Source: Elusimicrobiota bacterium
Lineage (GTDB): Bacteria; Elusimicrobiota; Elusimicrobia; UBA1565
Direction of reading: 5' to 3'
DNA length: 55,856 bases
NCBI GenBank assembly: GCA_043819795.1
Contig: JBDREN010000155.1
Coordinates: forward strand, 1 to 55,856
The translations under genes and the position numbers were made by a program. Positions within the stretch are counted from its first letter, which is position 1, and each line of letters begins with the position of its first letter. A model generated the notes under the pieces. The model ran no database searches. It saw only the letters and a program-made list of their open reading frames with translations, and was not told the DNA's origin. Positions 16,747-50,685 of this stretch are shown here, in pieces.

Positions 16747-17725
16747 AGCGGAGCGGCTCCGAGCCGGGCTTCTCGCGTGGGGGGCGCTCTGTGTCGCGCT
16801 CGCCGGCGCTTTGCCTGCCGTCGACGCCGCACCTGCCGCCGACGCCTTTCCGGAGGGCGGCCGGCACGGCGCCCCTGCCGGGGTCGACGCCGCACCCGCA
16901 GTATCAACGGGCGGACCCGCCGGACGGCGACGGACTCCCGGCGTGTCGCCCCGCCAGGCGCTCTTGACGGAGATGCGCGGCAGGCGGATCGTTCCCCCGG
17001 ACGCCGCCGACTGGACGCCGGATGAGTACACGCTGCTGCTGCGCCTGCGCGAGGCCCAGTCCATGGGGGCGTTCCGCCTTCTGCGCTCGAAGCTCGGGAC
17101 CTTGCGGGGGTACGCGGCCCAGGTCGAGGTCGGGGCGGGCCTCAAGGAGCCCATGCTCACAAAGCGGGGATACCGCACGTTCCTCTTCCTCCTCGCCCAG
17201 CAGGCCCGCGGCTATTTCGAGGGCAAAGGCGCGGAGGCGAGGTTCGTCTTCGAGCTCCAGAGCCTCGGAGGAAAGCCTCTCTTCGACGGCGAAGGCGGGC
17301 TGACGCAGGAGGGCGTCGAAATCTACAACCGGGTGCGCCGCGAGCTGCCCGCGTTCTGGCGCTATCCGGACGGGACCGTCACGGGCAGCGTGCGGCCGCC
17401 GCGCCGCCTGAGGAAGGGGGGCGAGGAGCCGCCCGCCGGCGCGGGGGAGGCGCCCAGGCCGTCCGCCGAGGACGCCCGGGCCCTCGGGAAGATCACGGCG
17501 CTGATGCGGTCGGGGTATGTGGAGATATCCGAAAGCGAGAAGGGCATGCTGCTTGAGGCCGCGAAGATGGACGACGAGCAGCTCGAGAGGGAGACCTCGC
17601 TCGTCGTCATCCGGACGGAATCGAAGGTGTTCTACCTGATCTCGCCCTCCGACCCACTCATGGACATCGTCGCCCGGCACCGCTCCGGGGAGGGAGAGCC
17701 CCCGCCCCCCGACAAGGCTCCCTGA
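16670..17725 (+). CDS. Hypothetical exported protein carrying the 63-bp repeat in-frame
   Basis: Hydrophobic segment [17 protein letters not shown] followed by repeat peptide and a globular-looking region; start uncertain (the in-frame ATG upstream of the hydrophobic segment overlaps the dcd 3' end). Confidence 0.6.
16814..16897 (+). repeat. 63-bp intragenic palindromic repeat, copy 1 (read [28 protein letters not shown])
   Basis: GTCGACGCCGCACCTGCCGCCGACGCCTTTCCGGAGGGCGGCCGGCACGGCGCCCCTGCCGGGGTCGACGCCGCACC. Confidence 0.9.
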
Positions 17726-17748
17726 GGGGGGGGCGCCCGAAAGGGTGT

Positions 17749-17777
17749 TTGCGCGTCGGGAAGGCATTTGATATACT
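17749..17777 (+). promoter_or_regulatory. sigma70-type promoter (extended -10) of rplM-rpsI
   Basis: TTGCGC-17 nt-TATACT with TGn extension, 9 nt before ATG. Confidence 0.7.
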
Positions 17778-17786
17778 GAGAGCGTT

Positions 17787-18624: not shown

Positions 18625-18625
18625 T

Positions 18626-19736: not shown

Positions 19737-19761
19737 CAGCGCCGGTCGCGCGCGGCGGTCT

Positions 19762-19824
19762 CCCGGCAGGGGGACCGTGCCCCGCGCCGTATGAGATGTG
19801 CGTCGGCGCTGTGGTGCGTCGACC
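19762..19824 (-). repeat. Degenerate intergenic copy of the 63-bp repeat
   Basis: Reverse complement reads GGTCGACGC..CGCCGACGC..GGCG..GGCACGGTCCCCCTGCCGGG, colinear with the consensus and 63 nt long. Confidence 0.65.
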
Positions 19825-19926
19825 GGTCGCTTGCACCGCTGGGTTATCAGGGATTGTACGCCCGCCGCAGGCAGGCATGCTTCCTTAATAGAGCGAAGGT
19901 GTAAGCGCCTCAAGCGCTGGATCGGA

Positions 19927-20300
19927 TGCGACACATAAGACGCCGACATGGTTCGGCGACTTTTATTAAGATTCCTCTTCGGGGGGGTCAGCGAGCGGTC
20001 GACCGAAGGGAGAGGAGCGAGCGCCGACGAAAGGGGGGGCAGAGCCCCCCTTGGAGAGCGGCCGAGCGGAGGCTGTTCTTTCCTCTCCGAAGCGAGGGGA
20101 CCCGACGCCCCCCGGCGGACTACCAGTCCGCCGGGCCGCGGAGGGCCGCGACAGGGAGGGGTGCGACATATTAGTCGCCGGCATGGTCCGGCGACCTTAG
20201 TCGGGGTGACCCGCAAGGCCCACTAAGGCGATGTGGGTCTTGCGGGCCCGAGGGGGCGGCAGCCCCCAGGGCGAGCACCGAGCGGAGCAGATTCCTCTCG
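19927..20300. other. Structured non-coding region with duplicated hairpin motif
   Basis: Imperfect direct repeats at 19927-19962 and 20162-20198 containing (GT/GA)CGCCGR-CATGGT-YCGGCGAC hairpins; long hairpin CCCGCAAGGCCCAC/GTGGGTCTTGCGGG at 20210-20246; GGGGGC-N3/4-GCCCCC motifs. Confidence 0.55.
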
Positions 20301-20318
20301 GAGCGAGGAGTGCGAGTA

Positions 20319-22187
20319 GTGTGTGGGATAGTAGGCATCTATAACCTCGACGGCAAGGCCGCGGACGCCGACGCCGTGCTGAGCGCGCGCGAGCGCCTCG
20401 CTCATCGCGGTCCCGACGAGGCCGGCGCTTGGTCCGAGGGGCCGGTCGCCTTCGGGTTCCGGCGCCTATCGATCCTCGACCTCGAGCACGGCCAGCAGCC
20501 CATGCGCTCGGCCGACGGGCGCCTGACGATCGTATTCAACGGCGAGATATACAATCATCCCCGCATCAAGGAGGAGCTCGAGCGCGCCGGCGTCCGCTAC
20601 CGGACGCGCTCCGACACCGAGTCCCTGCTGCACCTCTTCGCCCGCGAGGGAGACGGGGCCTTGCGTCGAGCGGAGGGCATGTTCGCGCTCGCCGTGTGGG
20701 ACGCGCGCAAGCACGAGCTGCTGTTGGCGCGCGACCCGGTCGGCGTGAAGCCCCTCTATTACCACTTCGATGGGAAGCGGCTCGCCTTCTCCTCCGAGCT
20801 GCGCTCCCTCGCGTCGCTGCTGCCGAATCTCGAGCTGGACTCGGCCGGAGTGCTCGACTACCTTTCCTACGGGTTCGTCCACTCCCCGCGGACGGTCCTT
20901 TCCTCGGTCCTGAAGCTCCCGCCGGGCCATCTGCTGAGGGTCAACGCCCACGGGCTCAAGCTCGAGTCGTTCTGGGAGATCCCGACGCGGCCGCCCTGGG
21001 CGGCTCACGCGCACCATGCTCCGAGCCGCGATCCGAGCCTGGCGGAGGCCATGGACGAAGTCGAGCGTCTGCTCATCGCCTCGGTCCGCGGCCAGCTCAT
21101 GAGCGACGTCCCCGTCGGGGCCTTCCTCAGCGGCGGGGTGGACTCCTCGCTGGTCACGGCCATCATGAGCCGCGCCACCGGCGGGAAGGTCCGGACCTTC
21201 AGCATCGGGTTCTCCGGCGTGCGCGCGGGCCTCGACGAGTCCGCCCACGCGCGCGCGGTGGCGCGCTACCTGGGCACCGACCACCACGAGCTCGTCCTTC
21301 CGGCGGACGTGCTCTCCCGCGTCGAGGATCTCGGGCAGTCCCTGGACGAGCCGATCGCCGACTCGGCCATCCTGCCGACGTTACTGCTCTCCCGCTTCGC
21401 TCGCGAGAGCGTCAAGGTCGTTCTGACCGGGGAGGGCGCCGACGAGCTTTTCGCGGGGTACGGGCGCTACAAGGCCGCCTACCTGTCGGAGGCCGTCGGC
21501 CGGATGCCGCAGTGGAGCCAGGCCATCGGTGCGGTGCTCGCGCGCCGGATGGGCAAGGGACGGCTCTTCCGGGAGCTCCCGCACGGCGGGCTGCGGGCCT
21601 GGGCCAGGGCGAGCGCGCACTCGCAGCCCGCCGAGCTCGACGGCATCTGCTGCCGGGATTTCTGGCGCCGGGCGGAGCGCGTCTCCCCGCTGGAATGGCT
21701 GAAGGACTCCGAGGAGCCTCACAGCCTCAAGGGGGCGCTGGCCTTCGACCTGAGGACGGTCCTGTGCGACTGCCTCCTTATGAAGGTCGACAAAACGACG
21801 ATGCGGGCCGGCCTGGAGGCGCGCGTGCCCTATCTGGACCGGCGTCTCGTCGAGTACGCGCTGCACCTGCCCGCGTCGTCCAAGATCCGCCGGCTGAAGG
21901 GCAAGTACCTCTTGCGCCGGCTCGCCGGCAAGTACCTCCCGAAGCCGATCGCCTGGCGGCGTAAGCACGGGTTCATCGTCCCGTGGGAGGAATGGGTGCG
22001 CTCGCCTTCGAACCGGGTGCTCGACGAGCTCTTGGCGCGCGGCGCCTGGAGGAGCTGGGGCGTCTTCGAGGAGGCCCGCCTGCGCTGGATGCTCGACGAG
22101 CTGCGCGCGGGGAGCCGGGAGGTCGACTCGGGCCTGTTCTTCCGCGTGGCCGTGTTCGCTCTCTGGCTGGAGTCGTTCAAGAACTAA
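20319..22187 (+). CDS. asnB: Asparagine synthase (glutamine-hydrolysing) family amidotransferase
   Basis: GTG start gives MCGIVG (Ntn Cys2) with GAGGAG SD; HRGPD, RRLSILD, FNGEIYN, LSGGVDSS, TGEGADELFAGY, LEARVPYLD. Confidence 0.93.
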   Translation: MCGIVGIYNLDGKAADADAVLSARERLAHRGPDEAGAWSEGPVAFGFRRLSILDLEHGQQPMRSADGRLTIVFNGEIYNHPRIKEELERAGVRYRTRSDTESLLHLFAREGDGALRRAEGMFALAVWDARKHELLLARDPVGVKPLYYHFDGKRLAFSSELRSLASLLPNLELDSAGVLDYLSYGFVHSPRTVLSSVLKLPPGHLLRVNAHGLKLESFWEIPTRPPWAAHAHHAPSRDPSLAEAMDEVERLLIASVRGQLMSDVPVGAFLSGGVDSSLVTAIMSRATGGKVRTFSIGFSGVRAGLDESAHARAVARYLGTDHHELVLPADVLSRVEDLGQSLDEPIADSAILPTLLLSRFARESVKVVLTGEGADELFAGYGRYKAAYLSEAVGRMPQWSQAIGAVLARRMGKGRLFRELPHGGLRAWARASAHSQPAELDGICCRDFWRRAERVSPLEWLKDSEEPHSLKGALAFDLRTVLCDCLLMKVDKTTMRAGLEARVPYLDRRLVEYALHLPASSKIRRLKGKYLLRRLAGKYLPKPIAWRRKHGFIVPWEEWVRSPSNRVLDELLARGAWRSWGVFEEARLRWMLDELRAGSREVDSGLFFRVAVFALWLESFKN

Positions 22188-22213
22188 GCACCGCAGGGCA
22201 AGCCTGCGGTGCT
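22187..22213 (+). repeat. 27-bp REP-like palindrome, copy 1
   Basis: AGCACCGCAGG-GCAAG-CCTGCGGTGCT between convergent genes. Confidence 0.8.
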
Positions 22214-22220
22214 GGCTCGA

Positions 22221-25245: not shown

Positions 25246-25851
25246 ATGCCTTTTTCCAAAAGGCAAAAGTCCGATTTCTATAAGCTGCTGCTCGAGCAGG
25301 CCGACAAGACCTTGGAGGGGCTCGCGGCCCTGGACGCCTTCATCCAGTCCCCCGATCCCGGCAGGGGCATGGCGGTCCGGGACCTCGAGAAGGAGGCCGA
25401 CGGCCTGCGTCGCGCCGTGGTCGAGGCGCTCGACGGGTCGGTCGCGACCCCCATGGACCGCGAGGACGTCTTCGCGCTGTCGCGCGCCATCGACGACATG
25501 GCCGACTACGCGAAGGCCGCGGCCGAGGAGATGACGCTCTTCGAGGTCCCCACCGACGACTTTCTCAGGAGGATGGCGCGCGCTCTCCGCGAGGCCGGCC
25601 AGGACATCGCCGCCGCGGTGCGCTCCCTGCGCGATTCCCCGCGTCTGGCCGAAGATCGGGTCATGCGCGCGAAGAGGACCGCGAGCTTCGTGGAGCGCAT
25701 CTGCCGCGAGGCGCTCTCGGAGCTGCTCAAGAAGCCCGGCGTCGTCGGGGTCCTGAAGACGCGCGAGATCTACCGGCACCTTTCCGACGCGGCCGACCGC
25801 GGCAACGAGGCCGCCGATATCATCGGCGACATGTTGGTGAAGTCCTCATGA
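25246..25851 (+). CDS. DUF47 / PhoU-like phosphate transport regulator
   Basis: LEKEAD, TPMDREDVFALSRAIDDMAD, REIYRHLSDAADR; ATG 8 nt after TGG-TAGAAT extended -10. Confidence 0.88.
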   Translation: MPFSKRQKSDFYKLLLEQADKTLEGLAALDAFIQSPDPGRGMAVRDLEKEADGLRRAVVEALDGSVATPMDREDVFALSRAIDDMADYAKAAAEEMTLFEVPTDDFLRRMARALREAGQDIAAAVRSLRDSPRLAEDRVMRAKRTASFVERICREALSELLKKPGVVGVLKTREIYRHLSDAADRGNEAADIIGDMLVKSS

Positions 25852-27623
25852 TCCCGAAGACGGTCCCGCTCCCGGAGGAATCTCCCCGCGGGACCCCCGC
25901 AAAAGGCCCCGCCGGCGGGAAGGGCCGCACCGGCCGCCAGGACATCTCCCGAGGGCGTCCGGCACGGCGCCCCTGCCGGGGTGGACGCCGCACCTGCCGC
26001 CCACGCCCGTCCCTAGGGCGGCCGGCATGGCGCCCCTGCCGGGGTGGACGCCGCACCTGCCGCCCACGCCCGTCCCTAGGGCGGCCGGCATGGCGCCCCT
26101 GCCGGGGTGGACGCCGCGCGCTGATCGCGGCGGCGTGCCTGTGCCTCGCCCTGTCGGCTTCGGCGGAGAACATCAGGCTCACGGTGCTCCACACCAACGA
26201 CATCCACGGCTGGATCATGGCGCGCCCCGACCGCAAGGCCGGCGGCCGCATGGTCGGCGGAGCGGCGGCCCTGGCCCGGGTCGTCAAGCGGGAGCGGGGC
26301 AAGGGCGGCCCGATGCTGCTCCTCGACGCCGGAGACTGGTTCCAGGGGACTCCCGAGGGCACCATCACGCGGGGCCGTTCGGTCGCGGACATCTTCAACG
26401 CGCTTGAGTACGACGCCGTGACCTTGGGGAACCACGAATACGACTACGGAGAGGAGCCGCTCAAGGCGCTTATCGCGCGGCTCGAGGTCCCGGTGGTCGG
26501 GTCCAACGTCCATGGCGTCGCCGGTGGAGGGCCGGTCGACTATGTGAAGCCCTATATCGTCAAGGAAGTCGCCGGGGTGAAGGTGGGGATCTTCGGCCTG
26601 CTGACCACGAGGATGCCCGTCATCACCATTCCCAAGAACGTGGCGGGCCTGCGCTTTCCGGACGAGGTCGAGACCGCCAGACGGATGGTGGCCGCTCTGC
26701 GCGAGGCGGGCGCGGATGTGGTCGTCGCCCTGAGCCACATCGCCCGCGGCGCCGCGGAGAGGGGCGGCTCCTTGAGCGACCGGGACCTGGCGGAGCGCGT
26801 CTCCGGCATCGACCTGATCGTCGGAGGGCATGCGCACGTGCCCGTGTTCGAGCCGGAGCGCGACCAGAGGACGGGCACTTTGATCGTGAACACGGGCTGG
26901 GCCCTCACGAGAGTGGGCCGCGCGGTGCTGGAGATCGATCCGGAGAGGAAAAGGGTCGTCTCCTCGAAGGGGGAGCTCGTGGACCTCTGGATCGACGAGG
27001 TGGGAGAGGACCCGGAGATCCGGAAGATCGTGGAGAAGTATCAGGAGGAGGTCGGCAGGAGGCTGGAGGTGGTCATCGCCACCGCGTCGGTCACCCTGGA
27101 GCACGACCGCGAGAAGATATCCTCCCTGGGCGTCTGGGTGACGGACTGCATCCGCCGATGGACCAAGACCCAGATCGCGTTCCAGAACGGCGGGGGCATC
27201 CGGGCCGACCTGCGGGCCGGGCCCGTGCGGCTTCGCGACATTTTCGAGATCATGCCCTTCGATAACTACGTGGTGACGCTCTATATGAGCGGGGCGGGCG
27301 TCAGGAGCATCCTGGAGCACGGCGTGTCCAGGGCTCCGGGCAAGGTGCAGGTCTCCGGCCTCCGGTTCAAGTACGATCCGGATGCCCCGGCCGGGCGGCG
27401 CCTGCGCGAGGTATCGGTCGGGGGCCGGCCCTTGGCGGACGACGAGGTCTACTCCGTGAGCGCCCCCGACTTTCTCGTCCTGGGCGGCGACGACTACGAG
27501 GCGTTCGGGGAGGGCACCGACAAGGCGGTCACCGGGACCTTGAGCCGCGACGCTCTCATCTGGTGCGCCCAGGAGAATTCCCCCATCGAGGCGCGGGATG
27601 CCGGCCGCGTTCTAGTCCACTGA
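25848..27623 (+). CDS. Exported 5'-nucleotidase / UDP-sugar hydrolase (UshA-like), with 63-bp repeats inside the signal peptide n-region
   Basis: LHTNDIHG, LLDAGDWFQG, LGNHEYDYG, IVGGHAH, NGGGIRA, MPFDN; signal h-region ALIAAACLCLALSASA. Confidence 0.92.
   Translation: MIPKTVPLPEESPRGTPAKGPAGGKGRTGRQDISRGRPARRPCRGGRRTCRPRPSLGRPAWRPCRGGRRTCRPRPSLGRPAWRPCRGGRRALIAAACLCLALSASAENIRLTVLHTNDIHGWIMARPDRKAGGRMVGGAAALARVVKRERGKGGPMLLLDAGDWFQGTPEGTITRGRSVADIFNALEYDAVTLGNHEYDYGEEPLKALIARLEVPVVGSNVHGVAGGGPVDYVKPYIVKEVAGVKVGIFGLLTTRMPVITIPKNVAGLRFPDEVETARRMVAALREAGADVVVALSHIARGAAERGGSLSDRDLAERVSGIDLIVGGHAHVPVFEPERDQRTGTLIVNTGWALTRVGRAVLEIDPERKRVVSSKGELVDLWIDEVGEDPEIRKIVEKYQEEVGRRLEVVIATASVTLEHDREKISSLGVWVTDCIRRWTKTQIAFQNGGGIRADLRAGPVRLRDIFEIMPFDNYVVTLYMSGAGVRSILEHGVSRAPGKVQVSGLRFKYDPDAPAGRRLREVSVGGRPLADDEVYSVSAPDFLVLGGDDYEAFGEGTDKAVTGTLSRDALIWCAQENSPIEARDAGRVLVH
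25924..26117 (+). repeat. 63-bp intragenic repeat, ~3 tandem units (read [21 protein letters not shown])
   Basis: 63-nt period visible in sequence, same unit as 16814 and 49057 but read in a different frame. Confidence 0.9.
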
Positions 27624-28212: not shown

Positions 28213-28218
28213 CCGGTC

Positions 28219-28245
28219 AGCGCCGCAGGCTTGCCCTGCGGCGCT
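28219..28245 (-). repeat. 27-bp REP-like palindrome, copy 2
   Basis: AGCGCCGCAGG-CTTGC-CCTGCGGCGCT (reverse orientation relative to copy 1). Confidence 0.8.
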
Positions 28246-28321
28246 TAGTTCCGTGCTCCTTCGGCGGTGTCCGCTCTCAGGCATTTCGCGGGTGAAGAGT
28301 ATCGGGCGCATCGACGGCGGC

Positions 28322-29204: not shown

Positions 29205-29840
29205 ATGCGGCAGAACTCGCAGCTGGCCCAGAAGATCGCCGAGGACTTGATCCTCGGAATGGAGCGGTCGAAGACGCCCGTCCCGGTGGGCGTCTCCAAT
29301 AGGCATTTTCACATCACCGAGGAGCACTGGCGCCGGATATTCGGTGAGCGGGAGCCCAAGATGTTCCGCCGGGTGCGGCAGCCGGGCTTCTGGGCGGCCG
29401 AAGATGTGGTGGATATCGAGGGCCCCAAGGGCCGTCTCAGCCGCGTCCGCCTCGTGGCCCCGTACCGGAAGCATACGCAGGTCGAGGTCTCGCGCTCGGA
29501 CGCGGTGACCCTGGGGCTCGAGCCCCCGGTGAGGGGCTCCGGGAGCCTGAAGGGGGCCGCGCCGATCCGGCTCATCGGGCCCAAGGGCTCCGTGGACGTG
29601 CCCGAGGCGCTCGTCATCGCCCAGCGCCACCTCCATTTCACCCCGGCGGAGGCGCGGCAGCTCAAGGTCGGCGACGGCGACAGCATGCGGGTCCGCGCGG
29701 GCGCCGGAGGGCCGCGCGAGCTCGTCTTCGAGAACGTCCTCGCGCGCGTCTCGGACAAGTTCGCGCTCGAGTTCCACGTCGACACGGATGAAGCGAACGC
29801 CGCGTGGCTCAAGACGGGGGATTTCGTACACTTGGTTTGA
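29205..29840 (+). CDS. pduL: Phosphate acyltransferase PduL (BMC-associated)
   Basis: VGVSNRHFH, QPG.WAA, TQVEVS..DA..LG, IAQRHLH, HVDTDEANAA; N-terminal amphipathic encapsulation-peptide-like helix. Confidence 0.93.
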   Translation: MRQNSQLAQKIAEDLILGMERSKTPVPVGVSNRHFHITEEHWRRIFGEREPKMFRRVRQPGFWAAEDVVDIEGPKGRLSRVRLVAPYRKHTQVEVSRSDAVTLGLEPPVRGSGSLKGAAPIRLIGPKGSVDVPEALVIAQRHLHFTPAEARQLKVGDGDSMRVRAGAGGPRELVFENVLARVSDKFALEFHVDTDEANAAWLKTGDFVHLV

Positions 29841-29947
29841 AGGGCGGGGGACAGGAAGGACATTCTTGTGACTGGATGTCGCATGCCGCGAGAGCTGGAA
29901 GGCTAACAGTGCTCTTGTGATGGAGTTTCCGATAACGCAGCGGACTG

Positions 29948-29974
29948 AGCGCCGCAGGGCGAGCCTGCGGCGCT
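29948..29974 (+). repeat. 27-bp REP-like palindrome, copy 3
   Basis: AGCGCCGCAGG-GCGAG-CCTGCGGCGCT. Confidence 0.8.
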
Positions 29975-30007
29975 AGCATGACTCTGAAGTCAGCATAGGG
30001 AGGCTTA

Positions 30008-30307
30008 ATGGAAGCGCTTGGAATGATCGAGACGAGGGGTTTGGTGGCCTGCGTCGAGGCCGCCGATGCCGCGGTCAAGGCGGCCAACGTGCAGATCGTG
30101 GGCTACGAGAAGGTCGGGACCGGCCTGGTGACGGTCCTGTTCCGCGGCGAGGTCGCGGCGTGCCGGGCCAGCTGCGACGCCGGCGGCGCGGCCGCGCAGA
30201 GGGTCGGGGAGCTTATCGCGGTCCACGTCATCCCGCAGCCGCACTCGGACCTCGAGGGCAAGATGCCCATCTCCCTTCCGGAGACCGCGGGCCGGGGCCG
30301 CAAGTAG
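30008..30307 (+). CDS. BMC-H shell hexamer (EutM/PduA-like)
   Basis: [11 protein letters not shown]...[12 protein letters not shown]...GEVAA...HVIPQPH. Confidence 0.95.
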
Positions 30308-30346
30308 GAGCTTCTTCCGTCCGTCCGGACGGGGGCAGGAGGGAGC

Positions 30347-30670
30347 ATGATATTCGCGAGAGTGATCGGGAACGTCGTCTCCACGAACAAGGACGAGAAG
30401 CTCGTCGGCAAGAAGCTTCTGCTGGTCCAGCCCACGGAGCTCGGCTCCGGCGGGGGCGCTAGGGGGAATCCTCTCGTCGCCGTGGACACCGTGGGGGCGG
30501 GGGAAGGGGAGCTGGTCCTGCTGGTGCAGGGGTCTTCGGCCCGGCAGACGGCGCTCACCGAGGGGCATCCGGTCGATTGCGCGATCGCGGCCATCATCGA
30601 CTACGTGGAGAGCGGCGGGACGCTCGTCTTCGAGAAGAGCAAGGACAAGGACTACCCGGCCAGGCGCTGA
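30347..30670 (+). CDS. BMC-P shell pentamer (EutN/CcmL family)
   Basis: ARVIGNVVST.K...KLLLVQ...VAVDTVGAGEGELVL..QGSSAR...DCAI.AIID. Confidence 0.95.
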   Translation: MIFARVIGNVVSTNKDEKLVGKKLLLVQPTELGSGGGARGNPLVAVDTVGAGEGELVLLVQGSSARQTALTEGHPVDCAIAAIIDYVESGGTLVFEKSKDKDYPARR

Positions 30671-30695
30671 ATGCGGCGCGCCGGGCGGGGGCATC

Positions 30696-32153: not shown

Positions 32154-32165
32154 GGAGAGACGAAT

Positions 32166-32717
32166 ATGCAGGCGAACATCGCTATTGGACTCCTGGAGAC
32201 CTCGTCGATCGCGAAAGGGATCGAGGCCTCGGACGCCATGTGCAAGATGGCGGGGGTCGAGCTCGTGAAGGCGGACATCATCGCCCGGGGCAAGTACATG
32301 ATCCTCGTGTCGGGACCGGTGGGGGAGGTCGAGTCCGCCATGAGGGCGGGCGCGCAGACGGCGGACCGGACCGTCGTCCATAGGGTCATCATCCGGAACG
32401 TTCACCAGCACGTTCTCGACGCGCTCGAGAAGCGCAGGACGGTCCCGGAGCTCGACGCGCTCGGCGTCATCGAGACGAAGGACGCGATCGCGGCCGTCCA
32501 CGCGGCCGACAGCGCGGCCAAGGCGGCCAAGGTGCACCTGATCGACGTCCGCGTGGCGATCGGCGGAGGCAAGGGGTACGTCTCGATGACCGGCGACGTG
32601 GGCGCCGTCCGGACGGCCGTCGGCGCGGGCATCGCGGCCGTGCCGGAGGGGATGCTGGTCAGCCGCGTCGTCATCCCCCGGCCCGACCGCCAGCTTTTGA
32701 GGACGATGGGGAAATAA
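32166..32717 (+). CDS. BMC-T tandem-domain shell protein (PduT-like)
   Basis: AIGLLETSSIAKGIEASDAM...GKY; second domain ALGVIET...AADSAAKAA...IGGGKG. Confidence 0.9.
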   Translation: MQANIAIGLLETSSIAKGIEASDAMCKMAGVELVKADIIARGKYMILVSGPVGEVESAMRAGAQTADRTVVHRVIIRNVHQHVLDALEKRRTVPELDALGVIETKDAIAAVHAADSAAKAAKVHLIDVRVAIGGGKGYVSMTGDVGAVRTAVGAGIAAVPEGMLVSRVVIPRPDRQLLRTMGK

Positions 32718-32718
32718 C

Positions 32719-33464: not shown

Positions 33465-33558
33465 TGAAGAAGCACGGCCCCCCGACAGAAACCGCCCCCC
33501 GTGGGGGGGCGGTTGACATCCCCCCGAGGGGGGGCGCTGGCAGGAGGACCGCGTAACC

Positions 33559-33855: not shown

Positions 33856-35002
33856 GCGCGAGTTGAGAGCTGTCGTCGAGACCGTCGTGAAGGTCCTGGC
33901 CGAGATGGGCCTGCTCAAGGAAGAGCGCGGCTGCGCGTCGGCCCCATCGCCGCACCTGCCGCCCACGCCCTTCCCGAGGGCGTCCGGCACGGCGCCCCTG
34001 CCGGGACGCTGCCCGGACAGCTGCCCGGACAGCTGCCCGGACAGGGGAGCCGGCCCCTGCGAGCCGGCGGTGCGGGCCCGCGGCGAGGGGGATGTCCGCG
34101 TGACCACCGGCACGGCGGGCAAAGTATTCGGGCAGGAGTGGACTTTCGGAAGGCCCGCGCCCTCAACAGCCGCCGCGGACGGCGAGCGGGAGCACACGCA
34201 CGGGCCGGATTGCCCCCATTGCTTGGCGCTTTCGAAAGTCGGCCCCAACGAGCTCCGGGCGCTGGGCGCCGACCGCATCGGCGTCTGCCACCCAACGAAG
34301 AACTGCAACGAGATCGCGCCGAGCGTCGATCATACGCTGCTCAAGCCGGGGGCGACGCAGGAGGAGATCGCGAAGCTCTGCGACGAGGCGCGCACGTACT
34401 GCTTCGCCTCCGTGTGCGTGAATCCGGCGTACGTCGCGCTGGCGGCGCGCCTGCTGCGGGGCTCGGGGGTCCTGGTCTGCACCGTGGTCGGCTTCCCGCT
34501 CGGCTCGACGACCCCGACGGTGAAGGCGATCGAGGCCCGCGACGCGATCGCGAACGGCGCCGGCGAGATCGACATGGTCCTCAACGTGGGCGCGCTGAAG
34601 TCGGGCAACGACGCGTTCGTTCGCGACGACATGCGAGCGGTGCGCGACGCCACTCGGGGACGGGTGCTCAAGGTCATCCTCGAGACGGCCCTTCTGACGG
34701 ACGACGAGAAGACGCGGGCCTGCCGGATCGCGAAAGAGGTCGGGGCCGACTTCGTGAAGACCTCGACGGGGTTCGGTCCCGGCGGCGCGACGGTGGAGGA
34801 TATCCGGCTCATGCGCGGGACGGTCGGCCCGCTCATGGGCGTCAAGGCCTCGGGCGGCATCCGGGACGCGGCGATGGCCCAGGCGATGATCGATGCCGGG
34901 GCGACGCGTCTGGGGACTTCGGCGAGCGTGGCGATCGTGACCGATCGCGCGCCCGGCGCGGGGGAGCCTAAGGGGGCGGGCGGCAAGCCCCCGGCGTATT
35001 GA
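33848..35002 (+). CDS. deoC: Deoxyribose-phosphate aldolase with N-terminal encapsulation-peptide-like helix and expanded linker
   Basis: [60 protein letters not shown]. Confidence 0.95.
33948..34044 (+). repeat. 63-bp intragenic repeat (read [19 protein letters not shown]) followed by 3 x 12-bp CTGCCCGGACAG
   Basis: CGCCGCACCTGCCGCCCACGCCCTTCCCGAGGGCGTCCGGCACGGCGCCCCTGCCGGG at 33948-34005; 12-mers at 34009-34044. Confidence 0.88.
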
Positions 35003-35048
35003 GCGTCGTGGCCCGCGGCTATCGGGGCCGCAGGAGGATCGCGGAGGC

Positions 35049-35648
35049 ATGAAGAAGAAGATCAGGGTGAGGATCGATCTCGAGTGCGGCGCCTGCGGGG
35101 CCCTCTTCCACCGCGGAGAGGTCCCGACGGACCCCGGATCGAGCGCCTCGACGGATATGCCGAAGGCGCGGGGCAGAAGCGTCGTCTCCGAGGGGTCCGA
35201 GCGTCGCGGCTCCGTGGGGCCTCTGCGCGCGGGCCACGAGGAGGATGCCAAGGGGTCCGAGCACTCCGGCCTCCAGCCGAATCCCGAGGGGTCCGAGCAC
35301 CTCGGCCCTGGCGGGCCGCCGCACCGCGGCCCCCAGCCGAATCCCGAGGGGTCCGAGCACCGCGGCCCTGGCGGGCCGCCGCACTCCGGCCCCCAGGTGA
35401 ATCCCAAGGGGTCCGAGCACCTCGGCCCTGCCGGGCCGCTGCGGTTCTGCGCGTGCTGCGGCGCGGCCTACGAGCGGTACTGCATCCTGTGCAGGAGGAA
35501 GGTCGGGATGTATTTCGAGGAGTGGTGGCCCGAGGACGACGAATGCGTCCGGACCTACACCTCCGCGAGGCGTTGTCCGACGTGCAACGCGGATCTTGAA
35601 GGAGGGCCCCGGGATGGGCCCCTCAACGGATCCGCTTACGAGCATTAG
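35049..35648 (+). CDS. Double zinc-ribbon protein interrupted by tandem repeats
   Basis: CGAC, CACC, CILC, CPTC pairs; SD GGAGG; 60-bp repeats between first and second pair. Confidence 0.7.
   Translation: MKKKIRVRIDLECGACGALFHRGEVPTDPGSSASTDMPKARGRSVVSEGSERRGSVGPLRAGHEEDAKGSEHSGLQPNPEGSEHLGPGGPPHRGPQPNPEGSEHRGPGGPPHSGPQVNPKGSEHLGPAGPLRFCACCGAAYERYCILCRRKVGMYFEEWWPEDDECVRTYTSARRCPTCNADLEGGPRDGPLNGSAYEH
35248..35440 (+). repeat. 60-bp tandem repeat (QPNPEGSEH.GPGGPPH.GP)
   Basis: ATCCCGAGGGGTCCGAGCAC recurs at 35281, 35341 and (variant) 35401. Confidence 0.9.
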
Positions 35649-35675
35649 GATTTTCCGGAAAAGGAGAAGACAACG

Positions 35676-35975
35676 ATGGCTGAGATCAAGGAAGCGCTGG
35701 GGTTGGTCGAGACGAAGGGGTTCGTCGGCATGATCGAGGCGACCGACGCCATGGCCAAAGCCGCCAAGGTGCGCATGCTCGGCTACGAACGGATCGGCGC
35801 CGGGCTCGTCACGACGCTGTGTCGCGGCGAAGTCGGCGCGGTCCGGGCGGGGGTGGAAGCGGGGGCCGCGGCCGCCCAGCGGGTCGGGGAGCTCGTCTCG
35901 GTCCACGTCATCCCGCGGCCGCACGGCGATCTCGAGAAGTACCTCGACAAGATCGCGATCAAGACCGGGGGCTGA
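35676..35975 (+). CDS. BMC-H shell hexamer
   Basis: [10 protein letters not shown]...[10 protein letters not shown]...GEVGAVRA...HVIPRPH. Confidence 0.95.
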
Positions 35976-36159
35976 CCGGCGCCGGCCCGGGACCGCTGGT
36001 GATACACTACACTGGGGTCCAGCGCCGCGCGCTTTAAGGAAAGGGGCTGGGGCGCCGGGAACGGGGCCGCGGCCGGGTGGGCGCGGGACGGCGAGTCCGG
36101 GGTCCGCCTGGGACCGCGCATCGCCGTGAGGCGTGCTCCGGCGTGACCGTAACGACACC

Positions 36160-37618: not shown

Positions 37619-38805
37619 CGGACGAGCGTCCGGGCGAGGGAGTGCAGGATGGCGACATCCAAGAGACCCTCATCGACCTGGACAACATCCTGCAGACCCT
37701 GACCGGTCCGGTCGAAGGAGCCGGGATCGTCGAGGGAGGCGTTCCCCCCGCGGAAGCGGAGGCGGCTCCGAGCGCCGTCGAAGCCGGGCCGCGGGCGGCC
37801 CACCCGCAGGAGCAGGTCCCGCCTCCCGCCGCGGAGAAGCCGGTCGAGATCCCCAAGGCGGAAGTGTCGCCTCCGGCGGAAGAGAAGCCGGTCGAAGTCC
37901 CCAGGGCGGAGCTCGCGCCGCCCGCTGAGCCGGAGCCGGTCGAAGGCGCGAGACCTTCCGAGCAGCCCAAGCCGGAAGAGCAAACGGCCCCCGGGATCGA
38001 ATTGGCTCCTCGCGCGGGCGTCATTCCCGTCGTCAAGAAGAAGCAGGAGGAAAAGAAGCCTCCCGTGAAGAAAAGGGGCCTTTCGGATACGGGATCGTTC
38101 GAGATCACAGTCGACGGCGTGCCGGTCCAGCCCGAACGGAAGAAGGAGCCTACTCCTCCGGAGCCGGCCCCGGCGCCCCATCCGGAGATCGAGCTGGCGC
38201 CGAGAGCCGGAATGCTCAAGCCTGTTGAAAAGGAGACCGCGGAGAAGAAGCCTTCCGAAAAGAAGGGGCTTCCGGAGACGGTCCAGAAGGAAGCGAGTCC
38301 GGAAGGAGCCCAGGCCAAGGCTCCGGAGCCGGCCGCTGCCGCTCCTGAACCGGCGGCTGTCGCGCCGGCTGCGCCCGCGAAGAAAGGGCCGCGGGGCGTC
38401 TCGACCGATCCGGAGCCCATCCCGGATAAGACCCCCGCCGAGCAGATCCGCAGGATCGCCTTCCTGTACGACCCCGGGCACGAGACTGTCTATGTGAAGT
38501 TCTCCCAGTTCCTCTCCGAAGTCGCCGCGAAGGTATCGAAGAAGCCTCTCTACCTCCACAAGGCCGTAGTGGCCGGGCTCACACGGGCGATGGACACGCA
38601 GGAGCTCCTCGGGCACTTCAAGAAGACGGGCGCCGTGGGCGTGTTTCTCCTCGTGGAAGGCGTGAACAAGGCCCAGATCCTGGATATCGAGAAGACCTGC
38701 GAGGACGAAGACATCTTCTTCGCACAGATCGCCCCCGAGGAGGTCGACAAGCGCACCAGGGCCATCGATCTCGTGGTGGACCTGATGCTGATGAAAGCGG
38801 GATGA
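37615..38805 (+). CDS. Hypothetical protein: Pro/Glu-rich disordered region plus C-terminal alpha/beta domain
   Basis: ATGA overlap with upstream stop; duplicated IELAPRAG motif; globular ~120-aa C-terminus. Confidence 0.75.
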   Translation: MTDERPGEGVQDGDIQETLIDLDNILQTLTGPVEGAGIVEGGVPPAEAEAAPSAVEAGPRAAHPQEQVPPPAAEKPVEIPKAEVSPPAEEKPVEVPRAELAPPAEPEPVEGARPSEQPKPEEQTAPGIELAPRAGVIPVVKKKQEEKKPPVKKRGLSDTGSFEITVDGVPVQPERKKEPTPPEPAPAPHPEIELAPRAGMLKPVEKETAEKKPSEKKGLPETVQKEASPEGAQAKAPEPAAAAPEPAAVAPAAPAKKGPRGVSTDPEPIPDKTPAEQIRRIAFLYDPGHETVYVKFSQFLSEVAAKVSKKPLYLHKAVVAGLTRAMDTQELLGHFKKTGAVGVFLLVEGVNKAQILDIEKTCEDEDIFFAQIAPEEVDKRTRAIDLVVDLMLMKAG

Positions 38806-40754
38806 CGATGTTGACGCGTTGGCGGATCGAGAAGTCTCCGACCGATAAGGATCCCCATCGACAGATCCTCCTGCTGAAGGGCTCACTCTCGGACGTGCGC
38901 GCCTTGATCCGCAGGCTGGGCGCGATGTGCGGCCGGCCCAAGAAGGAAAAGGGCGATCCCGATTTCAACTTCCGTCTCTACCTGCACGGCCTGAACGCGG
39001 AGGCGCTGGCCGACGTCGAAGCGCAGCTTCGCTCGCTGGCCGAGGGGGCCCCCGCTCCGACGACGCCGGCCGCGGCCGGGCCGGGCGAGGCGTCGGCTGA
39101 AGCGCCGGCTCGGGCGGTTCCCGAGGACGGCCGGCACCGCGCTCCTGCCGGGGTCGATGCCGCTCCTCTCCCTGAGCCTCCCAAAGAAGACGCGCCTTCC
39201 GCGTCACAAGCGCCGGAGAGCGGGGGCGAGGCTCCCGCCGGGCCCGGCCCCGAAACCGCTCCGGAGCCGGCCGGCCCGGCCGAAGCCGGGGCGGCGGCGT
39301 CCGCCGAAGAGGCGCAGGATTCCCCTGATTTCGTGGACCTGTCTGAGGAGGGAGCGGAGCAGGTTGAGGGCGTCTCGACGGGGGCTCAATCGTCCGGCAT
39401 CAGCCTCCATATGCCGTCCGAAGGCGCCGCGGCCGCGCCGGTCGCGCAGCCGGCGGCGGAGCCCGCTGTCGGGACGGCGGGGCAGGCGGCCGGATCCGAG
39501 GCCCCGGGGCTGGAGCGGCTCGCGGCCGCTCCGCTCTGCGGGGGCGTGGCGCCCGCGGACGATGCGTTCACGATGGAAACCCTCATGGTGGGCCCCTTTA
39601 ACCGTTTCGCCCACGCCGCCGCCATGTCGGTCCTCACCAGCCCGGGGACTCTCTACAATCCCATGTTCTTCTTCGGGGGCTCCGGCTCCGGGAAGAGCCA
39701 TTTGCTGCATGCCCTGGCCCAGAAGCTTCAAGAGCAGGCGGGCGACCAGCCGGTCTGGGTCACGTCCGGGGCGCGTCTGGCGCGCGCCGTGGCGCTGGCG
39801 GTCTCCTCAGGCAAGCTGGGCGAGCTCGAGGAGTTCGCTGGCAAGTCCAAGGCCCTGCTCGTCGACGACGTCCACCTGCTGGGCGTCGGAGAAGAGAACC
39901 GCGAGGCGTTGGCCAGGATATTCAAGACCTTTTTCGACGCCTCGATCCAAGTGGTGCTGAGCTCGGCCTATTCGGCCCGGATGCTGGGAGGGCTCGAAGA
40001 GGCGCTCGAGTTCCGGCTCGCTGCCGGGCATGTCGTGGAGCTGAAGCAGCCTCGAGAGGAGCTGCAGAAGGATATCGCCGCGCAGACGCTTCAAAGCCGG
40101 GGAGTGGCCGCCGATCCCGCCGAGCGGGACCTGTTCGCCGACCGCATCCTCCAGGATTTCCCGGGGCTCGAATCCTGCATCCGGCGCCTGCTGGCTCTAC
40201 GGAAGCTGCGCTCGGACGCCGGCCAAGGGGCGGCCGTCAGGGACCTGCTCCCGGTCCTGTTCGCCCCGGATGCCGGCGAGCCGGTGCGGACGCCGCCGGA
40301 GGAGCTGAAGTCCGCGTTGGCGTCTGCCGCGGCCTCCGCTCCGCCGGCCGACGGCGACCGGGACACGGCCCTGCTCTTCCCCGAGGGAGAAGAGACGCAT
40401 GCCGAATGGATCTGGCGCCAGCTGCACGAGAGCGCCCGGCAGAACGGCTGGCCGTTCCCGTTCCGGCGTGCCGTCCGCATGGCCTTCAGCCTCGAGCAGG
40501 CCGCCGCCGCTCCTTTCCTCGTGGCCGAGGAGTGCATCCGCGCGGGCGTCGCGGCGGCGCTGGTCCTCGGCCCGCCCCCGGGCAGCGACCTGGCGGGACA
40601 CGAGAGCGAGTTCCGCTACGTCGCCGAGCACCTCCTTCGGGACGGGCCGGTCGCGCTCGGCTGGATCCCGTTCAACCGCGTTAAGGACCCGAAGTACTCC
40701 GTCCTGGCCTATCTCGACATGATCGCGGGCGCGCCGGGAGGGGGCGAGCGGTGA
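38802..40754 (+). CDS. DnaA-like AAA+ ATPase domain protein lacking the DNA-binding domain
   Basis: FTMETLMVGPFNRFAHAAA...YNPMFFFGGSGSGKSHLLHA, Walker B LLVDDVH; C-terminus is not DnaA domain IV. Confidence 0.85.
   Translation: MTMLTRWRIEKSPTDKDPHRQILLLKGSLSDVRALIRRLGAMCGRPKKEKGDPDFNFRLYLHGLNAEALADVEAQLRSLAEGAPAPTTPAAAGPGEASAEAPARAVPEDGRHRAPAGVDAAPLPEPPKEDAPSASQAPESGGEAPAGPGPETAPEPAGPAEAGAAASAEEAQDSPDFVDLSEEGAEQVEGVSTGAQSSGISLHMPSEGAAAAPVAQPAAEPAVGTAGQAAGSEAPGLERLAAAPLCGGVAPADDAFTMETLMVGPFNRFAHAAAMSVLTSPGTLYNPMFFFGGSGSGKSHLLHALAQKLQEQAGDQPVWVTSGARLARAVALAVSSGKLGELEEFAGKSKALLVDDVHLLGVGEENREALARIFKTFFDASIQVVLSSAYSARMLGGLEEALEFRLAAGHVVELKQPREELQKDIAAQTLQSRGVAADPAERDLFADRILQDFPGLESCIRRLLALRKLRSDAGQGAAVRDLLPVLFAPDAGEPVRTPPEELKSALASAAASAPPADGDRDTALLFPEGEETHAEWIWRQLHESARQNGWPFPFRRAVRMAFSLEQAAAAPFLVAEECIRAGVAAALVLGPPPGSDLAGHESEFRYVAEHLLRDGPVALGWIPFNRVKDPKYSVLAYLDMIAGAPGGGER
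39118..39167 (+). repeat. 63-bp intragenic repeat, partial diverged copy (read [16 protein letters not shown])
   Basis: TTCCCGAGGACGGCCGGCACCGCGCTCCTGCCGGGGTCGATGCCGCTCCT. Confidence 0.8.
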
Positions 40755-47589: not shown

Positions 47590-47624
47590 GCCCGCGTCCC
47601 GGGAGGCGCCGCGCGTCCGGGGCG

Positions 47625-48584
47625 TCAGATCGGGTCTTCGTGGGACCTCGAAGGTCCTTCACCGCACCTGAGGTGGAGCAGGAACGCCTCCGCGTCGGCC
47701 GGGATGAAGCGCTCCGTCTCGGGGGCGGTCAGCGGCGGAGCATCCGACTCGATCGCTCTTTCCAGCAGCCTGCGGAACCTCCCTCTCATGAGCGGGTCCC
47801 GCATGAGGGTATCGGGCTTGACGCTTCGCGCGGGGAGGCCCGCTTTCCGCAGCTCATGCGCCCAGTGCCGGGCCTTCAGGCCGAGGATGCTCGCCTGCAG
47901 GGAGTCAATGCGTTCGGCCGCTCCGTCGCAGCTGTCCGCGGCGGCGGCCGCGCGGAGCGGGGCGTCCTCTCCTTCGAAGGAGAATACGGCCGGCGCGCCG
48001 GGCAGAAACCGCGAGGACCGCTCCGCGCCGGGCTGACGGCCGTCGACGTAGGCCAACCTCGCGGCACGGGGAACGGAGGCTTCGCGGGGACGGGCGCGCG
48101 CGGGGTCCTCGAGGAGACGTTTCCTCAAACGGACGTTCCGCGCTCCCAGCACCACTCCCGTTTCGATGTCCACGAGCCGGGCGTTGACTTCGATGGCGTC
48201 TTTCAGTATTGAGAAGGAGCCGGTGACCACGGCCTTGACCTCGAGCACCCGGCCGATGCGGCCGCGCTTGCGCGTGTCCAAGGCGCCGGTCAGGCGCAGG
48301 GAGTGCTCCCTGAGGATCGCCGGCAGCAAAGTGCGCTCGATCACCTCCATCTTCCCGTAGTACGCGATCCAGGTCGTCAGCCGCTCCGACAGGGCGAGCC
48401 CTTCCGAAGCGGCGGAGCCGTCGAGCGGGACGAAGGGAAGGACCGCCAAGCGTTCGATCCCGGCTTTGGCGCCCGCCCGAGACAGATGCTTCGCCAGCGA
48501 TTTGCAGCCGTCCGCGGCGCATGCGCGGCCGGGCAGTCCCAAGCCGAGCGTGACGGTCCAAAGGCATATCCGGGATGCGGTCAT
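47625..48584 (-). CDS. Exported FlgO/CsgG-like domain protein
   Basis: Signal-like N-terminus; LAVLPF, EVIER...ILRE, IGRVL.V.AVVTGS, VNARLVDIETG. Confidence 0.7.
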   Translation of the reverse strand: MTASRICLWTVTLGLGLPGRACAADGCKSLAKHLSRAGAKAGIERLAVLPFVPLDGSAASEGLALSERLTTWIAYYGKMEVIERTLLPAILREHSLRLTGALDTRKRGRIGRVLEVKAVVTGSFSILKDAIEVNARLVDIETGVVLGARNVRLRKRLLEDPARARPREASVPRAARLAYVDGRQPGAERSSRFLPGAPAVFSFEGEDAPLRAAAAADSCDGAAERIDSLQASILGLKARHWAHELRKAGLPARSVKPDTLMRDPLMRGRFRRLLERAIESDAPPLTAPETERFIPADAEAFLLHLRCGEGPSRSHEDPI

Positions 48585-48786
48585 GGTGTCTCATGACAAT
48601 CATAGCCCGCGAGCCTCCGAATGCGGTCAAGACGGGCTCAACTTTACCTCAACTCAGCGATGGGCGAGCGGCCGGAGATCCCGCCGAAGACCGAAGCACC
48701 TTCTCCACGATAGGCCGAAAGACGAGGGGAAAATGGGCCGTTGGGCCTAAGCAGGGACCGCCGGACCGTTGCTATACTTGAGGCCC

Positions 48787-50685
48787 GTGGCGGCCAAGAA
48801 CCACTTCGGTCTCGCTTTTCGTTGCGCGCTGGCGCTGCTGATCGCGGCGTCGCCTCTGTGCGTTCATCTGTCGCACGCGGCGGCCATCGGCCGCGTGGCT
48901 CCCCTCCAAAGCGCCCCGCCCGTCGGCGCCCGGTCCGCCGCGGCGGGAGCGGCCGTTTCCGGCGCGCGGCCTTCGAGCCTCCGGCTTCCCTTGAGCGGGG
49001 CCGTCGCTTTGACCTCGGTCCTTCCGGGGGTGTCGTCCCTGGCTCCGTCCGCCCGGGCCCTTCCCGAGGGCGGCCGGCACGGCTCCCCTGCCGGGGTCGA
49101 CGCCGCACCTGCCGCCGACGCCTTTCCCGAGGGCGTCCGGCACGGCTCCCCTGCCGGGGTCGACGCCGCACCTGCCGCCGACGCCTTTCCCGAGGGCGTC
49201 CGGCACGGCTCCCCTGCCGGGGTCGACGCCGCATCGTCCGCGGTCGAGGCACGCGCGGCCCCGCACCGTTCCGGCCTCGAGCGGACGGACATCGCTGCGG
49301 CGCGGAGGATGTCTTTCGGCCGACTCAAGGAGCTGGCCGCGTCCAAGGCATCCGGGCCGCTGTGGGAGAACACCAAGAAGCTTCCGGGGCTCGAGGCTTC
49401 GGGCGCCGCCGCGGCAACGCCCTCGCCCACCCCGGCCGGCACGGCCGCCCTCCGGGCTGGAGGCCGCGCTCCCGCGCTCAAGGCGCGCGCGGTCCTGGCC
49501 GGCATCCGGGACCAGCTGTTCCTCGACCTGCGGAGGTACGACCGGCGGCAGGACACCGAGAGCTTCGATTGGCGGCCGGTCTCGGAGCCCCGGCACCGGG
49601 ACCAGGTCCGGATACCGGAGAGGGGCTGGAAGCTCCAGGCCAGGGACGCGTACCTGTATCTCAGGATATACTTAAGGTCCTTGCTGTGGCGGAGCACGAC
49701 CCGGCTGTACTACCGTTGGGAGCAGGTGAAGACCGGAGCCCGCGAGCGCCGGGGCGCCAAGCGCGCGGTCCGGAGGCTCCTCCCCTTCCTGCTGGCCAAC
49801 CTCGTCATGGGATCCACCGGGCGCGTCGAGACGTTCGGTCTCCGTACGGCGCACAACCGGATCGTGGTGGCCGACGCCTGGTCCGTATTCAATAGGTACT
49901 TCCGGACGGATCAGGCCGCCACCGGCGCGTTCTCGCGCCTCATCCTGCGCGCCCGCCACTACAACCCGAACCGCCGCCTGACCCAGTTCCGCAAGATCCT
50001 CGTCACCGCGCTGCGGGAGGCGTCGGTCCGGAGCCCCGCCGAGCTGCCCGCGTATTTCGACAGCCTCGTCACGACGGAGGCGGGCCAGGAGCTCATCGAG
50101 TTCCAGAAGGACGGACAGCGGCGGACTTTGGAGGTCTTCGACCGGGCCGTGCGCGAGTCGATCCTGGCGGTCAACAAGGGGCTTCCGGCGGGCCGGCGCG
50201 TCGTCGGTGCGGTGCTCATGGGGAGCTTCGCCAACGGGGGCGCCGGGCCGAACAGCGACCTGGACATCGAGATCGTGACAGAGAACGGCAGCACCGTCCA
50301 CCTCAAGGCGTTCTACGACGGCCTCAAGGCGCGCTGGAAGGCCGCGGGCATGAGCCGCCATCCCATCGGCGACTTCGAGTACGCCCTGCCGGTCTCCAAG
50401 AGCCTCATCTCCCGCATGCACCAGGAGCCGTACATCGTCTTCTCGCCGTATCCCGAGGTCATCGAGGCCCTGCAGCGCTCGCCCGCGGAGGAGCGCGCGC
50501 GCAAGGTCCGGCGGGTGCGCAAATGGACCGGACGGCTTTCCCACGCGCTCCTCATCTCCGTATGGCTGCTCAGCCTCGCGGTCTACGAAGCGTGCAAGCT
50601 CTTTTCCCGCAAGTTCGGGCCTTCGCGGAAGATAGGCGAAGTCTCCCCTCGTTTCGACTCGCACGGACCGTTCCTTTCCACGTAG
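48787..50685 (+). CDS. Signal-peptide-bearing protein with C-terminal nucleotidyltransferase (pol-beta-like) domain
   Basis: GTG 8 nt after TGC-TATACT; h-region CALALLIAASPLCVHLSHA; GSFANG...SDLDI motif; C-terminal hydrophobic helix. Confidence 0.7.
   Translation: MAAKNHFGLAFRCALALLIAASPLCVHLSHAAAIGRVAPLQSAPPVGARSAAAGAAVSGARPSSLRLPLSGAVALTSVLPGVSSLAPSARALPEGGRHGSPAGVDAAPAADAFPEGVRHGSPAGVDAAPAADAFPEGVRHGSPAGVDAASSAVEARAAPHRSGLERTDIAAARRMSFGRLKELAASKASGPLWENTKKLPGLEASGAAAATPSPTPAGTAALRAGGRAPALKARAVLAGIRDQLFLDLRRYDRRQDTESFDWRPVSEPRHRDQVRIPERGWKLQARDAYLYLRIYLRSLLWRSTTRLYYRWEQVKTGARERRGAKRAVRRLLPFLLANLVMGSTGRVETFGLRTAHNRIVVADAWSVFNRYFRTDQAATGAFSRLILRARHYNPNRRLTQFRKILVTALREASVRSPAELPAYFDSLVTTEAGQELIEFQKDGQRRTLEVFDRAVRESILAVNKGLPAGRRVVGAVLMGSFANGGAGPNSDLDIEIVTENGSTVHLKAFYDGLKARWKAAGMSRHPIGDFEYALPVSKSLISRMHQEPYIVFSPYPEVIEALQRSPAEERARKVRRVRKWTGRLSHALLISVWLLSLAVYEACKLFSRKFGPSRKIGEVSPRFDSHGPFLST
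49057..49233 (+). repeat. 63-bp intragenic repeat, ~2.8 near-perfect tandem units
   Basis: Unit CCCGAGGGCGTCCGGCACGGCTCCCCTGCCGGGGTCGACGCCGCACCTGCCGCCGACGCCTTT; read [21 protein letters not shown]. Confidence 0.95.

Follow-up and report, generated by a model that had tools for sequence, protein, structure and literature searches.

Introduction

The Rickettsia palindromic elements (RPEs) are long stem-loops of 105-146 bp that have terminal inverted repeats and encode one conserved peptide (PMC2229807, PMC10969869, PMC3733652). According to these papers, they are dispersed in many copies, lie in frame within unrelated conserved genes whose orthologs are empty at the same place, and have no known transposase. 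Here, we describe a 63-nt repeat that shares the latter features in a bacterium of the phylum Elusimicrobiota. It was noticed in a stretch of 55,856 nt, hereafter the window (assembly GCA_043819795.1, contig JBDREN010000155.1, positions 1 to 55,856), and was then followed through the host genome and its relatives. The unit is best read as acting like an RPE without being one, since the described features of RPEs set it apart: it is only 63 nt long, folds on average no better than shuffled sequences, has no terminal inverted repeats and uses six reading frames; its arrays are head-to-tail and its spread is local, along one strand.

Other small repeats resemble the unit in part. CGTC-tagged repetitive extragenic palindromic (REP) sequences measure 20-40 bp, with 8-9-bp stems, a 4-5-nt loop and a CCA tail; they are mostly intergenic, form inverted dimers and, in that account, lack a dedicated transposase (PMC3733652). 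In common with this group, including the intragenic RPE-4 and RPE-6, the unit carries on its reverse strand CGTC next to a sharp end, followed by a short GC hairpin, and its intragenic copies span about 20 codons. Indeed, its reverse strand begins GGCGTC, with each position of the CGTC tag kept in 23-25 of 25 full-length loci. In contrast to these REP sequences, the unit has a stem of 4-6 bp, no CCA tail, direct arrays and two thirds of its loci in coding sequence. Mycobacterial interspersed repetitive units are 40-100 bp long, GC-rich and present in about 40-50 copies per genome, with open frames, 4-bp direct repeats and overlaps with the ends of operon genes (PMC3184786). Size, copy number, GC richness and open frames are shared by our unit, which nevertheless lies mostly inside genes and shows no fixed 4-bp duplication. 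As in the insertion sequence (IS) family IS200/IS605 and in the TIRYT or TnpA-Y1 subclass 2.1 elements, the unit appears to have fixed ends, a short preferred target and a lean towards one replication strand (PMC5027513, PMC6006769), and subclass 2.1-like Y1 genes are found in the host genome; unlike these elements, it has neither supported subterminal hairpins nor a cognate transposase that it flanks. In the literature covered, with most subscription journals outside it, we found no such repeats described in Elusimicrobiota, and a coding repeat with this sequence was previously unlisted.

Results

In register, the unit starts with GCACC and ends with GACGCC. The host genome (4.99 Mb in 241 contigs, 66.8% G+C) was searched with an nhmmer profile built from 37 seed copies, which at E<=0.01 returned 63 units, merged into 51 loci on 25 of the 241 contigs; the reversed genome gave none at E<=0.1. 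The repeat is real, dispersed and not due to chance, and it is present well beyond the window, as the initial annotation had expected. The 51 loci are a lower bound, because some matches reach contig ends. The high genome-wide abundance extrapolated from the window proved about ninefold too high, because the window is a cluster: its density is about one locus per 11 kb, compared with about one per 98 kb in the whole genome.

Coding calls, made with a dicodon gene caller and manual corrections (a few host genes being weakly called), placed 34 of the 51 loci in coding sequence and 17 outside called genes. All six reading frames are in use: 21 coding loci are read in the commonest frame (PEG), two each in the RP and PH frames, and nine are antisense (2, 1 and 6 per frame). 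The three frames initially reported were therefore right but incomplete. Copies in genes would add peptides of 21 residues, as predicted by translation, and a Pfam family was found in 8 of 13 host proteins tested. The claim that every insertion sits in a tolerant position stands for the window; elsewhere, some copies lie within enzyme domains, such as the radical-SAM domain of MoaA and the kinase domain of RibF. One copy (contig C168:2632-2701) provides the TAG stop of the gene that it overlaps.

Orthologs lacking the segment were found at several of these sites. The DeoC segment is missing in 30 of 30 aligned homologs (119 were returned), and no repeat occurs in the 12 of 13 orthologs of the 5'-nucleotidase whose N-terminus is visible, 11 of which run directly from the start into the signal peptide. 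In MoaA (contig C215) an exact insertion of 21 residues, in an antisense frame, faces 8 of 8 empty orthologs. The amylopullulanase copy (contig C149), in another antisense frame, is missing from 7 of 7 orthologs, with a gap of exactly 21 in three, and the RibF loop (contig C113) has no insert in 12 of 14 orthologs. The DnaA/Hda-like ATPase, also proposed for such alignment, gave a partial answer: the peptide is in none of 11 aligned homologs, but an empty site could not be defined in so variable a linker. Likewise, none of 7 aligned orthologs of the nucleotidyltransferase-domain protein carries the peptide, in a region that is variable, and it is absent from the 11 orthologs listed for the 16670-17725 protein. 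Paralog pairs were tried as a further source of empty sites and set aside, the close NtrC-type paralogs both containing the unit.

Intergenic repeats served as insertion sites too. The minus-strand copy initially placed in intergenic DNA at 19762 is not free-standing but lies inside a different repeat, to which it adds 61 nt; of 24 matches to that host repeat, 20 are empty 40-nt copies and one is the filled 101-nt copy. This variant matches a 60-nt variant of the unit by blastn (E 8e-6) and was missed by the genome nhmmer profile. A second host repeat has 40 matches, 32 of them empty, 5 with 54 additional nt from another family (family B) and 2 with 60 additional nt from the unit variant. The +60-nt forms may reflect a single event spread along with the host repeat. 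Family B entered this repeat without duplication.

It is the DNA rather than the peptide that is conserved, as initially proposed. Besides the use of six frames, ratios of synonymous to non-synonymous changes (39 of 58 units scored) were 36:63 in units read in the PEG frame, 15:18 in those read in other frames and 11:20 outside genes; there is no extra synonymous bias in the PEG-frame units. The 3' half of the unit is almost invariant, third codon positions included. Two other traits once considered special were not borne out. Absence of stops in all six frames is shared by 54% of 5000 dinucleotide shuffles and is ordinary because base composition predicts it; moreover, real copies hold TAG or TGA in frames that are not read. 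Nor is a palindrome the defining trait: folding z-scores range from -2.4 to +0.5 for the six window strands, with a mean of -0.76 over units, the hairpin across the junction is fully paired in 6 of 38 distinct units, and the second hairpin is intact in 32 of 38 without compensatory changes.

Ends and flanks were scored on 25 full-length loci chosen by hand among the 51. The right end is sharp: the last 15 bases are each kept in 22-25 of the 25 loci, and the next positions outside in 21, 19, 16 and 17. Flanks are mostly CC upstream and GC(G/A)CC downstream, like the unit's own head-to-tail junction, and single copies usually match the repeating consensus over 63 plus 2-15 nt. In the amylopullulanase, the junction-like flank encodes residues kept in orthologs, and therefore the target site pre-existed. 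The target duplications suggested initially were not found as a fixed feature. The flanking direct repeat is the unit's own junction, of variable length (2 to at least 15 nt), which together with the lack of inverted ends distinguishes the unit from miniature inverted-repeat transposable elements. Arrays keep an exact period of 63 nt.

Copies are also clustered. Pairs on the same contig number 67, against 9.9 expected and a maximum of 35 in 20,000 simulations, and 62 of the 67 are on one strand; divergence is 8.4 of 60 bases within a contig compared with 11.1 between contigs. The local co-orientation of copies is firm. A link of orientation to replication is suggested: with the leading strand inferred per contig from the skew at fourfold sites, the G-rich strand being assumed to lead, 42 of the 51 loci fall on that strand, among them each of the 9 antisense-in-gene copies (on 5 contigs). 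Three intergenic control families have no such bias (23/48, 12/29 and 7/17); a fourth is biased (21/27), and family B leans the same way (14/18). An attempt to order the clustered contigs by synteny was abandoned, the orthologs lying on different contigs or far apart in the relative G013.

Within the window, all six sites of the initial annotation were recovered and their units placed in register (Table 1), which moved several boundaries, for example those of the three units at 49042-49230 and of the 54-nt piece in DeoC. The start codon of the first host open reading frame (ORF), 16670-17725, is uncertain, and junction-like sequence around its unit spans 16820-16896. Units 2 and 3 of the nucleotidase array hold TAG in the PEG frame, units 2 and 3 of the 49042-49230 array are identical, and the DeoC copy is followed by a 12-nt tandem repeat at 33998-34044. 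The candidate at 12324-12370 would correspond to the peptide PAGEPSRSAPGG; the nhmmer profile gave no match there. At 35181-35445, a contig of sequencing run X1 lacks 36 nt, an in-frame length allele.

Table 1. Copies and variants of the unit in the window, and Y1 genes elsewhere in the host genome
Feature	Position	Strand	Context
One 63-nt unit	16829..16891	+	PEG frame, in a conserved hypothetical protein, directly after its predicted signal peptide
Three head-to-tail units	25927..26115	+	n-region of 5'-nucleotidase (25848-27623), read RPCRGGRR...
Truncated unit, 54 nt	33952..34005	+	N-terminal linker of DeoC (33848-35002), 18 residues
Degenerate unit, 17 mismatches	39099..39161	+	PEG frame, Pro/Ala linker of DnaA/Hda-like ATPase (38802-40754)
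Three head-to-tail units	49042..49230	+	PEG frame, low-complexity N-terminal region of nucleotidyltransferase-domain protein (48769-50685)
Distant variant, ~61 nt	19755..19815	-	Within the loop of an intergenic palindromic repeat unrelated to the unit (19739-19839 with the insert)
Possible decayed copy	12324..12370	+	Antisense in the minus-strand ribonucleotide reductase gene; weak blastn match
Array of 60-nt units akin to the 60-nt variant	35181..35445	+	In frame in a 199-aa ORF (35049-35648)
Partial related variant	49411..49470	+	Same nucleotidyltransferase ORF, different frame (TPAGTAALRAGG)
Y1 (HUH) genes whose terminal repeats end in GG(C/G/T)GTCAGG	C96:36998-37960, C140:10328-11270, C102, C198, C72		Other contigs

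The window also contains two other intergenic repeat families (19970-20308; and 22181-22214, 28218-28256 and 29937-29974), with 41 and 40 loci in the repeat catalogue of the genome. Its region 29205-36000 is a cluster of microcompartment type, with PTAC, aldehyde dehydrogenase and BMC-domain genes and the DeoC with an N-terminal extension. Rfam gave no match in the window.

Outside the host genome, the unit has a narrow range. At E<=0.001, 8 of 60 relatives gave a match, a strong one in G014 only; a pattern search of 400 further genomes from the phylum matched one, in a draw without G014, which itself has 2 matches. One G014 copy lies in the tail of scpB, where the host genome is empty, and another, at the tail of an orthologous gene, is present both in G014 and in a metagenome contig (L034, L012). 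Decayed antisense copies occur in the miaB linker of two genomes from another family (G060, G044). We considered miaB as the source copy and rejected it: the linker was obtained from 35 of 40 regions, none with a profile match there, only G060 and G044 matching. Exact matches numbered none in viral contigs and one each in genome and metagenome collections, from which records very near the host genome may be excluded. Run X2, which belongs to a different study, has contigs with 93-97% likeness to the window that stack on repeat sites to depths of 64 and 39 in the bins concerned, a summed depth that does not equal copy number, and no X2 contig bridges a junction. Among the matches listed for runs X1-X4, no contig visibly bridges or skips a 63-nt site, and no RNA run was listed among those holding the sequence.

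The gene-entering habit is wider than the sequence range of this unit. In the host genome, a 45-nt family (contigs C36, C83, C218, C182 and others) has 24 of 37 loci in genes, in many frames and locally on one strand, and two of its copies occupy the host's own miaB linker. Family B, with units of 51-54 nt (contigs C30, C138, C122, C171 and others), also enters genes and builds tandem and nested arrays; one of its subtypes ends in overlapping start and stop bases. In relatives, the RibF insert of G014 (L144:2170-2275) is a repeat with a 57-nt period, with at least 42 matches in G014, 41 in G009 and 36 in G005, and that of G012 (L150:2255-2345) has at least 48 matches in G012 and 25 in G006; these two repeats occupy the same or the next loop. 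The unit is not significantly similar to any of these repeats, whether family B, the 45-nt family or those of G014 and G012 (p 0.08-0.9). In the nucleotidase of G014 (L018:1597-1725), the same n-region site is occupied by an insert of about 35 codons that is unrelated and single-copy, and the RibF insert of G005 has 2 matches only; therefore, not every insert in a relative is multi-copy.

Candidate enzymes are plentiful in the host genome, with Y1, DUF559, IS110, reverse transcriptase, tyrosine integrase and GIY-YIG genes all present. The initial annotation proposed a RAYT/IS200-type or DUF559 gene flanked by the repeat; none of the 19 Y1, IS110, reverse transcriptase, GIY-YIG and DUF559 genes checked has this arrangement (22 tyrosine integrase matches lay outside this check), and the only IS200-type tnpA found is broken. 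None of 6 Y1 loci is flanked by the unit, a feature that defines REPtrons. Five Y1 frames of about 290-330 aa were found, four with HxH-type and YIHLNP motifs. Terminal repeats at the five Y1 loci of Table 1 are paired at both ends in four and end close to the TIRYT or subclass 2.1 consensus (PMC6006769, PMC3733652). There are 64 matches to such ends genome-wide, some of them short gene-less pairs. At 113-530, the window itself has a DUF559 gene with a 29-nt tandem hairpin repeat after it; the genome gives 9 DUF559 matches.

Discussion

Our results confirm the central proposal of the initial annotation, that of a dispersed, lineage-restricted and non-autonomous coding repeat. As to how it spreads, the leading explanation, which we hold tentatively, is that the unit is inserted as a small circle, by an enzyme, at nearby junction-like sites, mostly on the same-direction strand. 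It would be a selfish repeat of non-coding origin, 63 nt long with fixed ends and inserted at about 50 sites. A small circular copy, probably single-stranded, would be joined by a host or orphan enzyme into nearby sites that look like the junction of the circle itself, and the strand chosen would mostly be the one whose copying runs the same way as that of the donor. A precedent may be found in IS200/IS605 elements, whose single-strand circles move into the lagging-strand template (PMC5027513). Since 63 is divisible by three, copies would be tolerated within genes, and harmful insertions would be removed by selection.

Several observations weigh against this explanation. Neither a circle nor a transcript was observed, and no strain-level empty allele appeared among the matches listed for runs X1-X4. 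Nor is every end fixed: roughly half of the loci are partial or variant, and in RibF the copy begins at an internal GACGC identical to host codons. The stable hairpin needed by HUH enzymes has no support in the unit. The nearest copy lies 1,069 nt from one Y1 gene, and across the 19 Y1, IS110, reverse transcriptase, GIY-YIG and DUF559 genes the longest exact shared word is 9-12 nt. Counted by contig, the strand bias is just 15 to 5 (p 0.04), the skew estimate for each contig is weak and neighbouring contigs may be non-independent, while the 45-nt family is locally co-stranded yet untied to the leading strand (14/34). Finally, PEG-frame copies make up 21 of 34 coding loci, compared with 26% predicted by a single target motif and 27% for the commonest antisense frame; therefore, gene direction or peptide tolerance also matters.

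Some of these points fit with spread that needs no dedicated enzyme, a possible but rather less likely course of events. Template switching or gene conversion, guided by homology from a nearby copy and followed by expansion through slippage, would target GC-rich sites sharing 5-15 nt with the unit junction. The extension of single copies into the repeating consensus by 2-15 nt speaks for this process, as do the internal microhomology at RibF, the many partial copies, the local same-strand spread and the absence of an enzyme linked by position. Set against this, in several full-length copies (such as C140:37586, C140:25233 and C76:5846) one flank or both bear little resemblance to the junction, the right end is very sharp, and the entry of family B into its host repeat left no duplication.

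A mover has also been sought among Y1 (HUH) proteins flanked by terminal inverted repeats (TIRs), of the TIRYT or TnpA-Y1 subclass 2.1 type, which would recognise GG(C/G)GTC hexamers in the unit. We consider this specific proposal improbable. It draws on the motifs present in four of the five Y1 frames, on terminal repeats close to the TIRYT consensus and on the sharp end of the unit, which is GGCGTC on the reverse strand, with four such hexamers per unit. Alignment to the Y1 ends gave p values of 0.03, 0.02, 0.002 and 0.002 for four intragenic units, compared with 0.14-0.94 for four intergenic controls, but this test was post hoc, having been made after the match was noticed. No such likeness was found for family B (p 0.33), the G014 repeat (p 1.0) or the G012 repeat (p 0.75); Y1 genes are present in 17 of 17 genomes of the family whether or not they carry the repeat, and none is flanked by the unit.

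Explanations based on function in place fare worse. A polar site for chromosome organisation or protein binding, enriched in one region and required there, would account for the clustering, the strand bias and the near-invariant 3' half, including its third codon positions. It is nonetheless very unlikely, given the narrow range of the unit (1 of 400 genomes by pattern, 2 places in G014), its variable presence at orthologous sites and its tandem and partial copies. A linker module rich in Ala, Pro and Gly, kept for its protein sequence and shuffled among genes, could explain why one frame accounts for 21 of 34 coding copies and why third positions of the PEG frame are mildly enriched among substitutions (48 of 114); the same excess, however, is seen in copies not read in that frame, two of which carry TAG there, 13 of the 34 coding copies are read in one of the five remaining frames, and 17 loci lie outside called genes. 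The antisense insertions largely refute this idea, to which we give hardly any credence. Assembly chimeras at a GC-rich repeat are scarcely credible: the assembly is in 241 contigs and no contig from another run was seen bridging a junction, but the insertions lie in genes that are intact and are a whole number of codons long, copies have their own substitutions and an orthologous copy is common to G014 and a metagenome contig.

It is conceivable, if doubtful, that a family-wide, replication-linked copying system makes lineage-specific units of 45-63 nt, each divisible by three, and places them close by and in a single orientation within protein loops. If true, such a system would routinely generate new protein sequence in six frames, and the orphan TIR-associated Y1 (HUH) proteins would gain their first mobile substrate.

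For genome annotation, start codons near copies of such repeats are prone to miscalling. The phenomenon of coding repeats is now seen in another phylum, in several genomes, where the same loops of RibF and MiaB have been struck independently by different repeats, which gives a map of insertion-tolerant sites in core enzymes. How coding repeats of the Rickettsia type move is still open in reviews; the new family offers a testable handle on this question, with its fixed ends, its defined target, its local spread on a shared strand and, in its own genome, candidate enzymes.

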